A program made the position numbers and the translations under genes. DNA of 64,000 bases, from NCBI RefSeq assembly GCF_056712565.1, contig NZ_CM160072.1; one strand, given 5' to 3'. The notes beneath the pieces were generated by a model. The model did no database searches and was not told where the DNA came from. It saw only the letters and a program-made list of their open reading frames with translations. This document shows positions 37,721 through 40,327 of this stretch, piece after piece (the first letter of the stretch is position 1; the number at the start of each line of letters is the position of its first letter).

Positions 37721-40073
37721 TCACAAAGTGTTTTGATACGGCAGAATGTTCGAACGCAGCATCTCTTGCGTACCCAGACCGTAGTTGGAGCTCAGGCCGC
37801 GAAGTTCGATGTTAAAGCCGATTGCGTTGTCATATACCGCATGTTGTTTATCGTTATCCCAACCGTTCAGCTTCCGCTCGTAACCGACGCGAATCGCATA
37901 GCAGCAGGAGCTGTATTGCACACCTAACATAGAGTCGGCTTGCTTGTTCGCATTGGTGTCGTAGTAGTAGGCCCCAACAATGGACCAACGATCGGCAATT
38001 GGCCAGCTGGCGACGGCACCTACCTGCGAAATACCATTCTTATATTGCTCAGCAGTGGAATAGTACTTAGGCAGCGTTGCCTGAATATATTCCGGGCTGG
38101 CGTAACGGTAATTCAGCTGTACCAGACGGTCTTCATCCCGACGGTATTCAATGCTGGAGTTACTGGTCGCTACGTTATCCAGACGTGTATCGTACTGAAT
38201 CCCGCCACGCAATCCCCAACGATCAGAGATGCGCCAGTAAGTATCGCCTGCCCATACCAGTGAGCCCGTTTTGTCGTCATTCTCCCATGTTATGTTGTCA
38301 TCGCCAGTGCGAGACTCCGTGAAATAGTAGATTTGACCAACGGAAATATTAAAACGTTCAACGGCAGCATCATCATATATGCGAGATGTGACACCGGTCG
38401 TCACCTGGTTAGCGGAGGCAATACGGTCAAGACCGCCGTAAGTCCGGTCCCGGAACAGGCCGGAGTAGTCAGATTGCAGCAGCGACGAGTCGTAGTTATA
38501 GATTTTGCTCTGATCGCGATATGGCACATACAGATACTGCGCGCGTGGTTCCAGTGTCTGGGTATAGCCCGGCGCCAGCATTTCCATATCACGCTCGAAG
38601 ACCATTCTACCGTCTACCTTGAACTGCGGCATTACACGGTTAGCGGACTCTGCTAGCTTGGTCGTGTTTCTGGAGTTATACCAGTCAAGATTGGTTTGCT
38701 GATAATGGGTTGCCAGCAACTTCGCTTCAGTATTGATGCTGCCCCAGTTATTAGAGAGCGGCAGATTGATGGTCGGTTCCAGGTGAACACGAGTCGCCTC
38801 TGGCATGTCATCTCTGGTGTTAACAAAGTGCACCGCCTGGCCGTAAATTCGCGTATCGAAAGGACCGACATCGTTTTGATAGTAGTTAACGTCTAACTGC
38901 GGTTCTGCCGAGTAGCTACTGGTGTTCTGCTCGCTGAAGACCTGGAACTGCTTGGTTGAAACGGTGGCATTGAAGTTTTGCACCGCATAGCCAACGCTGA
39001 ATTTTTGCGTTGCGTAGCCGTCGGTACTGGAACCGTACTTGTTATCGAAATCATTGAAGTAGCTAGGATCGCTGACCTTGGTGTAGTCGACGTTGAAACG
39101 CCACACCTGATCCATGACCCCGGAGTGGTTCCAGTAGAATAACCAACGACGTGAACTGTCATCGTTCGGGTGTTCATCTTTATAGACTTTATCTGAAGGC
39201 AGATAGTCCAGTTCCATCAAGCCAGCGCCCGCCTGGGAGAGGTAGCGGAATTCGTTCTCCCACATGATATTGCCACGACGATGCATATAATGCGGCGTGA
39301 TGGTGGCATCCATATTTGGCGCGATGTTCCAGTAATATGGCAGGTAGAACTCAAAGTAGTTGGTGGTGGTGTACTTGGCGTTCGGGATCAAGAAACCAGA
39401 GCGACGTTTGTCACCCACCGGCAACTGCAAATAGGGGCTATAAAAGATCGGTACCGGACCCACCTTAAAGCGGGCGTTCCAGATCTCCGCAACTTGTTCT
39501 TCGCGGTCATGAATAATTTCGCTACCTACCACGCTCCAGGTGTCAGAACCCGGCAGACAGGAGGTAAAGCTACCGTTATCCAGAATGGTATAGCGGTTTT
39601 CGCCACGTTGTTTCATCAGGTCCGCTTTACCGCGGCCCTGGCGACCCACCATCTGGTAATCACCCTCCCAGACGTTGGTATCTTTGGTGTTCAGATTCGC
39701 CCAGCCTTTCGGCCCTTTGAGGATCACCTGGTTATCGTCGTAATGGACATTACCGAGCGCATCAACGGTACGTACCGGCTCCGGTTGTCCTGGTGCCTCT
39801 TTTTGATGGAGCTGCACTTCGTCGGCCTGCAGACGGCTGTTACCCTGCATGATATCCACGCTGCCAGTAAACACGGCGTCATCCGGGTAGTCCCCTTTCG
39901 CGTGGTCAGCATTGATAGTCACGGGTAAGTCATTGGTATCGCCCTGTACCAGAGGACGGTCATAGCTTGGCACGCCCAACATGCACTGTGAGGCGAGGTC
40001 GGCTGCCAGTCCCTGTTGACTATAAAGGGCGGTGGCAATCATGGTGGCCAGGAGTGGGGATACGTTTTTTCAT
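37721..40073 (-). CDS. lptD: LPS-assembly outer membrane protein LptD; 5' end disrupted by a 2-bp deletion in the signal-peptide codons
   Basis: Long ORF 37721..40042 begins [18 protein letters not shown]...; the expected upstream start ATG 40073 (MKKRIP...) is in another frame and stops after 17 codons. Confidence 0.85.
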
Positions 40074-40327
40074 ACGTTGATTTTATTGTTCCATCATCGG
40101 TAACGTTGCGCGTGACAAACGGTCAGAGACTAACGTACTCGTCATCTCTACGCTAGTGTTAATCCTGTCCGAATAGCGTCTGTGGTGTTAGGCACGGCAT
40201 TGAATGACAGGTATGATAATGCAAATTATAGGCGATGTCTCACAATAGACCGCAGCCAGAAATGGGTAAAAGCGCCTTTATATTGTGGGAGATAGCCCTG
40301 ATATCCGTGTGTCGATTTGGGGAATAT

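Follow-up and report, generated by a model that had tools for sequence, protein, structure and literature searches.

Two bases are missing from the lptD gene in the window (the whole stretch of DNA analysed, 64,000 nucleotides long), at a point within the codons for the signal peptide. The gap is unique to this record, and its predicted effect is the near-loss of an essential protein. Because no other public genome was found with the gap, not even a sister genome that is otherwise identical, it is most likely an artefact. Judged from the sequence comparisons described below, the lone gap would very probably be a singleton sequencing or assembly error of this record and not a feature of the biology of the bacterium. 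Chance is not at issue, as the gap is a discrete difference from every comparator and not a statistical pattern.

Structure of the lptD locus

The lptD locus was found on the minus strand at positions 37,721–40,073, with surA (36,382–37,668) on one side and the divergently transcribed djlA (40,328–41,143) on the other. Its 773-amino acid product contains the Pfam domains LptD_N (PF03968) and LptD (PF04453), which together with the conserved djlA–lptD–surA–pdxA context identify the gene as that of the LPS-assembly protein LptD/OstA. The orthologous locus is annotated as lptD in S88, ER1709, Z0117EC0054, and APEC O1, and the APEC O1 gene is intact. As found in the window, the locus measures 2353 nt, 2 nt under the 2355-nt gene (784 codons plus the stop codon) annotated in S88, in agreement with the first-pass annotation of this DNA, in which it was described as exactly 2 bp short for a 784-amino acid product.

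The central claim of that annotation, the loss of 2 bp from a GAGAG tract (CTCTC on the coding strand) in the signal-peptide codons of lptD, was borne out by alignments to S88, Z0117EC0054, and GCA_027274065.1. These alignments place the deletion junction at 40,052–40,054 on the minus strand, in codons 7–8, where CTC (GAG on the plus strand) is the remnant of an ancestral CTCTC (GAGAG); the gap can be placed at more than one position in the tract. Read on the minus strand, the lptD sequence of the window is ATGAAAAAACGTATCCCCACT-CCTGG, whereas other genomes read ...ACTCTCCTGG. Within positions 40,040–40,075, the window allele is ACTCCTGG, compared with ACTCTCCTGG in the intact form.

Reading from the ATG at 40,073, the codons are ATG AAA AAA CGT ATC CCC ACT CCT GGC CAC CAT GAT TGC CAC CGC CCT TTA TAG. 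The authentic lptD start thus opens, as had been claimed, only a short frame created by the frameshift (40,020–40,073, minus strand), which comprises 17 codons, ends at a TAG at 40,022–40,020, and overlaps the ATG of Met12; the intact 784-codon frame that should run from the annotated start is absent from the window. The long open reading frame resumes at the ATG at 40,042 (37,721–40,042, minus strand), which is the first start codon of that frame and corresponds to Met12 of wild-type LptD, to give 773 amino acids in which the mature LptD sequence is intact. When the two bases were put back computationally, the canonical 24-residue LptD signal peptide was recovered, again as had been proposed. 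It was also considered in the first-pass annotation that a reference LptD starting at MIATALY would overturn this interpretation. The reference proteins WP_000746170.1 and WP_000746151.1 are 784 amino acids long and therefore do not begin at that point, and the RefSeq annotations that were inspected all start with MKKRIPTLLATM. The Cys31 numbering of LptD used in the literature fits the start at 40,073 as well.

Distribution of the gap and lineage of the window

A 241-nt query spanning the gap matched 5,425 of the 5,426 RefSeq complete Escherichia coli genomes. The deletion was present in none of these 5,425, because every best hit was 243 nt long against the 241-nt query (99.2% identity). The CTCTC tract is also intact in the RefSeq genome of the type strain, ATCC 11775, which we take to be the E. 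coli entry in the collection of one representative genome per species. The one complete genome that gave no hit to the query also had no match to any part of the 64-kb block, which is rich in essential genes (ileS, lspA, ispH, dapB, folA, and lptD); this entry may be the source record of the window itself or may be mislabelled. Searches beyond the complete genomes gave the same picture, with no match to a junction 30-mer in a metagenome contig collection and no gene call supporting the gap allele in a gene index that covers 153 billion positions.

In that index, the exact 773-amino acid product, which is identical to the corresponding stretch of ST95 LptD, was recorded on only nine contigs, and none of the nine carries the 2-bp deletion of the window. 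Seven of them (L004, L006, L007, and L009–L012; runs ERR4562682 and ERR4563092 and five of the SRR30949xxx series) have instead lost one base of an A6 run, so that ATGAAAAACG replaces ATGAAAAAACG with a 1-bp frameshift. These contigs are short and contain extra indels, amounting to two to five homopolymer indels within 4–7 kb in six of them and to seven indels of mixed type in L004. Because most of these nearby indels are in homopolymers, the seven A5 contigs look like the product of platform errors, and the A5 form at the lptD start was absent from all RefSeq complete genomes. Of the remaining two contigs, one is explained by a contig end and the other by the choice of start codon on intact DNA: in the draft GCA_000233675.2 (AEYT01000002.1), the 5' DNA of lptD is intact and the product is recorded from Met12. 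In the same draft, rapA and pdxA are likewise split or shortened. As the nine contigs can all be attributed to homopolymer loss, a contig end, or start choice, the other apparent 5' frameshifts of lptD in public data appear to be technical, with the frame otherwise always kept. LptD measures 784 amino acids on all 57 contigs examined around DjlA and at both places shown, representing 25 contigs, around the RsmA variant of the window. On this sequence background, clean assemblies showed no frameshift ahead of Met12, and a literature search returned nothing relevant on signal-sequence frameshifts of lptD or on lptD pseudogenes in ST95.

The window itself is a segment of an E. coli chromosome of the B2/ST95 type, running from nhaA to leuC, and is near-identical to S88, UTI89, IHE3034, and many APEC/ExPEC strains. 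Apart from the lptD gap, 10 substitutions and a single intergenic A5/A6 difference separate it from S88 over the 64 kb, and three substitutions separate it from Z0117EC0054, the nearest RefSeq genome. The A5/A6 difference lies between dapB and carA (A6 at 11,157; A5 in S88) and can be assigned to the S88 side, because A6 is shared by the window, Z0117EC0054, and three other genomes that match positions 1–25,000 exactly. The three substitutions relative to Z0117EC0054 are found in fixB (L197L, 26,178), araC (D7A, 52,011), and leuC (T238S, 62,364), and none of these variants had an exact match among the ~5,400 RefSeq complete genomes. Exact-protein look-up recovered AraC D7A and LeuC T238S on at least 24 independent contigs each, among them NCBI drafts and Logan assemblies from several sequencing runs, and the entry for AraC D7A itself lists 16 contigs. 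On this evidence, the three SNPs are genuine markers of an ST95 sublineage that the RefSeq complete genomes of the collection do not represent. Backgrounds ~1% divergent from the window (L018 and L020; 73–77 mismatches in 6–7 kb) also carry an identical AraC D7A protein, which suggests that this variant is recurrent or has been moved between lineages by recombination.

A sister genome, GCA_027274065.1, which lies outside the RefSeq-complete collection, was located through the RsmA variant of the window; look-ups with PolB and DjlA matched too widely to single out the sublineage. All three lineage SNPs are present on its 5.12-Mb contig, which matches the window at 100% identity over 25,075–64,000 (~39 kb; pieced together from 25,075–44,894, 41,992–62,837, and 58,676–64,000), save for the two bases in lptD. 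At this point the sister reads ACTCTCCTGG, and its LptD is called at 784 amino acids. Because the sister is otherwise identical and shares the lineage SNPs but not the gap, the deletion is a singleton that falls on the terminal branch of this record. No other indels or unexplained base differences were seen relative to the sister over the 39 kb or to Z0117EC0054 over the 64 kb, and the assembly of the window thus does not appear noisy apart from the lptD gap.

Several other features of the window can be noted. The ccdB gene of a chromosomal ccdAB toxin–antitoxin pair by folA (33,028–33,343) carries a frameshift in the annotations of S88 and Z0117EC0054, and the window is identical to Z0117EC0054 there; unlike the lptD gap, ccdB therefore appears to be a lineage-wide pseudogene. 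An IS200C transposase gene between carB and caiF (15,922–16,380) and a remnant of an IS630-family transposase downstream of araC (53,085–53,224) are also annotated in both of these genomes. The araD–araA intergenic region (48,169–48,418) contains an 85-bp unit repeated 2.9 times (93% matches) with REP/BIME-like palindromic content.

Predicted consequences for LptD

LptD, an essential outer-membrane protein, is synthesised with a signal peptide that directs it to the Sec pathway for export and is then cleaved off (PMC3944529). The Met12 product was compared with the features of a Sec signal peptide, namely a positively charged n-region, an h-region of ~7–15 hydrophobic residues, and a c-region with a cleavage site. 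Its predicted signal peptide has 13 residues, contains no Lys or Arg, and has an apolar run of 7 residues (Thr and Tyr included) compared with 14 in the wild type. The best 7-residue Kyte–Doolittle mean falls from 2.41 to 1.69, whereas the c-region is kept. As computed from the sequence, the product is thus deficient in both n-region charge and h-region, and the earlier expectation that a reinitiated product would be poor for Sec export is upheld at the level of prediction. The AUG of Met12 is also not preceded by a Shine–Dalgarno sequence, the best computed anti-Shine–Dalgarno duplex having an energy of −1.5 kcal/mol.

Relative to the short upstream frame, LptD is read in the +1 frame, which is open from codon 2 onward. 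Computed +1 slips at codons 2–7 restore a hydrophobic core of 12–14 residues. Hypothetical rescue sites are found in codons 2–6 and the A that follows (AAA AAA CGU AUC CCC-A; 40,055–40,070, minus strand), where AAA-A and CCC-A are the only slip places that rejoin the LptD frame with the core intact; slips at these would give near-normal precursors such as MKKRIPLLATM.... Unprogrammed +1 shifts occur at less than 0.003% per codon, rising to ~1% in the best case of CCC-C at the second codon, and slippage at CC[C/U]-[C/U] sites likewise reaches up to ~1% (PMC4519876). If the deletion were real, we infer that LptD output would not exceed a few percent of normal. Unless a suppressor lay elsewhere in the genome, the cell would probably die or be severely impaired.

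Origin and significance of the gap

In the first-pass annotation, the choice was left between a sequencing or assembly error and an unusual allele. Both options are kept here, with the singleton status of the gap and the poor Met12 product favouring an error. An artefact of consensus calling, assembly, or editing would have contracted CTCTC to CTC in codons 7–8, and the living bacterium would carry an ordinary 784-amino acid lptD with a 24-residue Sec signal peptide, like the sister genomes. This explanation is favoured by the contrast between the singleton and an identical sister, the absence of public support for the allele, the near-lethal predicted cost, and the technical nature of comparable public cases. 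A rough base-rate estimate, which assumes that each Mb of a finished assembly retains a few indel errors and that no more than a few percent of real indels would be tolerated in this region, puts an error in lptD codons 1–11 at about one per ~5,400 genomes and a tolerated real indel at ~100-fold rarer. Counting against an artefact, the window appears otherwise error-free over its 64 kb, and the loss of 2 bp from a dinucleotide repeat is a classic slipped-strand mutation, unlike the 1-bp homopolymer indel that is the usual long-read error and of which none was seen in the window. The gap resembles the false pseudogenes that arise from residual assembly indels in that a single small indel breaks a conserved, essential reading frame, is missing in near-identical relatives, and has no independent support, and the seven public A6-to-A5 contigs show a similar lesion at the lptD start, accompanied by other indels. 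It differs from that class in its size of 2 bp, its position in a dinucleotide instead of a homopolymer tract, and the otherwise clean 64 kb around it.

Because nanopore consensus errors cluster in methylation motifs, the four differences from Z0117EC0054 were first suspected to be basecalling artefacts. Such errors concentrate in Dcm (CCWGG) and Dam (GATC) sites, with ~70% of the errors of the default ONT model in Dcm motifs (PMC6591954). Two of the three SNPs fall exactly on methylated bases (the inner C of CCTGG to T, Dcm; the A of GATC to C, Dam; P ~6e-4), and the first base of the GAGAG tract is also the final G of a CCAGG Dcm site (40,048–40,052). A methylation-linked error signature was nevertheless rejected, given the independent contigs that carry AraC D7A and LeuC T238S and the sister that has all three SNPs. 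The SNPs on methylated bases are thus not private to the window, and only the adjacency of the indel to CCAGG is left, which is weak evidence of likeness to this class of error. Published methylation-linked errors are mainly C-to-T and G-to-A substitutions and not 2-bp deletions, and the substitutions on methylated bases in the window are genuine lineage variants. Their position is a post-hoc coincidence that cautions against over-reading the Dcm adjacency of the gap; the SNP at 26,178 was possibly helped by a 5-methylcytosine deamination hotspot.

If the gap is real, slipped-strand mutation would have removed one CT unit only very recently, in the isolate or in a laboratory stock, and produced a severe lptD hypomorph. 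The CTCTC context suits replication slippage, the remainder of the window has no assembly errors, and the existence of chromosome-scale assemblies of 5,120,130 and 5,121,674 bp in the sublineage makes a parent/derivative pair conceivable. This origin is nonetheless unlikely, given that no second occurrence was found in the 5,425 complete genomes, the sister, the gene-call index, or the metagenomes and that clean assemblies of this background show no frameshift before Met12. Such an allele could be expressed in two ways. Ribosomes terminating at the UAG at 40,022–40,020 could reinitiate at the Met12 AUG 20 nt upstream, an event that is possible in bacteria but inefficient, and the resulting protein, with its truncated and uncharged signal peptide, would be poorly exported. 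In addition, an occasional ribosome could slip into the +1 frame at AAA-A or CCC-A within codons 2–6 and yield near-normal precursors; the geometry allows this rescue, and CCC-N sites are known to be slippery (PMC4519876). Against both routes stand the essential and Sec-dependent nature of LptD (PMC3944529), the lack of a Shine–Dalgarno sequence and of adequate n- and h-regions at Met12, and a ceiling of ~1% on slippage (PMC4519876), which leaves the summed output at an estimated few percent of normal or less. Survival might require a suppressor, such as a prlA-type secY allele, or a second copy of lptD, and a leaky outer membrane would be the expected phenotype. That the isolate carries a genuine deletion and lives on a few percent of LptD through Met12 reinitiation and accidental +1 slippage at AAA-A or CCC-A is quite improbable; such a state could possibly have followed selection by an LptD-targeting phage or antimicrobial or be accompanied by a suppressor elsewhere.

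The classical signal-sequence alleles of lamB and malE, and the prl suppressors that act on them, come from work on reporter proteins that are not essential. The Met12 product of a real gap would resemble these as in effect a signal-sequence deletion, without the charged n-region and half of the core, and would be expected to be export-defective but leaky; it differs in that LptD is essential and the normal ribosome-binding context is also lost. The lptD4213 (imp4213) allele, an in-frame deletion of 23 codons in the mature protein, is viable with lower function and a permeable outer membrane. A real gap would be alike as a permeable-membrane hypomorph and unlike in that it shifts the frame within the signal-peptide codons and spares the mature sequence.

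It is scarcely credible that the allele is functionally silent, whether because the first 11 codons are dispensable and Met12 is the natural start or because the frameshift is programmed. An in-frame AUG does exist at codon 12, and a gene caller picked it on one intact sequence (L005). The inspected RefSeq annotations, however, all give 784 amino acids from MKKRIPTLLATM, the 5' codons and their frame are kept in 5,425 of 5,425 genomes, and Met12 has no Shine–Dalgarno sequence before it. A programmed frameshift would be expected to be conserved among relatives, and this is contradicted by the sister, which lacks it. As in +1 frameshifting at CCC-N or prfB-type sites, LptD lies in the +1 frame of the upstream frame and a CCC-A is present at codon 6, but the window shows neither a conserved or Shine–Dalgarno-like stimulator nor a stop codon in frame where slippage would occur, and neither the 5,425 genomes nor the sister have the frameshift. 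Any +1 shifting here could only be accidental leak-through and not programmed recoding. Nor does the tract resemble a phase-variable contingency locus, in which a long tract varies in unit number: CTCTC holds only 2.5 units, its length is constant in every genome inspected or among the best hits, and contraction was seen in 0 of 5,425.

If the gap is an artefact, as is most likely, the matter is one of curation: a record that wrongly presents an essential gene and drug target as a pseudogene could mislead surveys of pan-genomes, essentiality, or vaccine targets. If it were true, the window would show an essential outer-membrane protein being sustained in nature by translational leak-through. 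It would set a natural lower bound on the amount of LptD and the quality of signal peptide with which E. coli can live, and the rescue of an essential gene by reinitiation and +1 slippage would be relevant to the Lpt pathway, to Sec targeting, and to antibiotics and phages directed at LptD.
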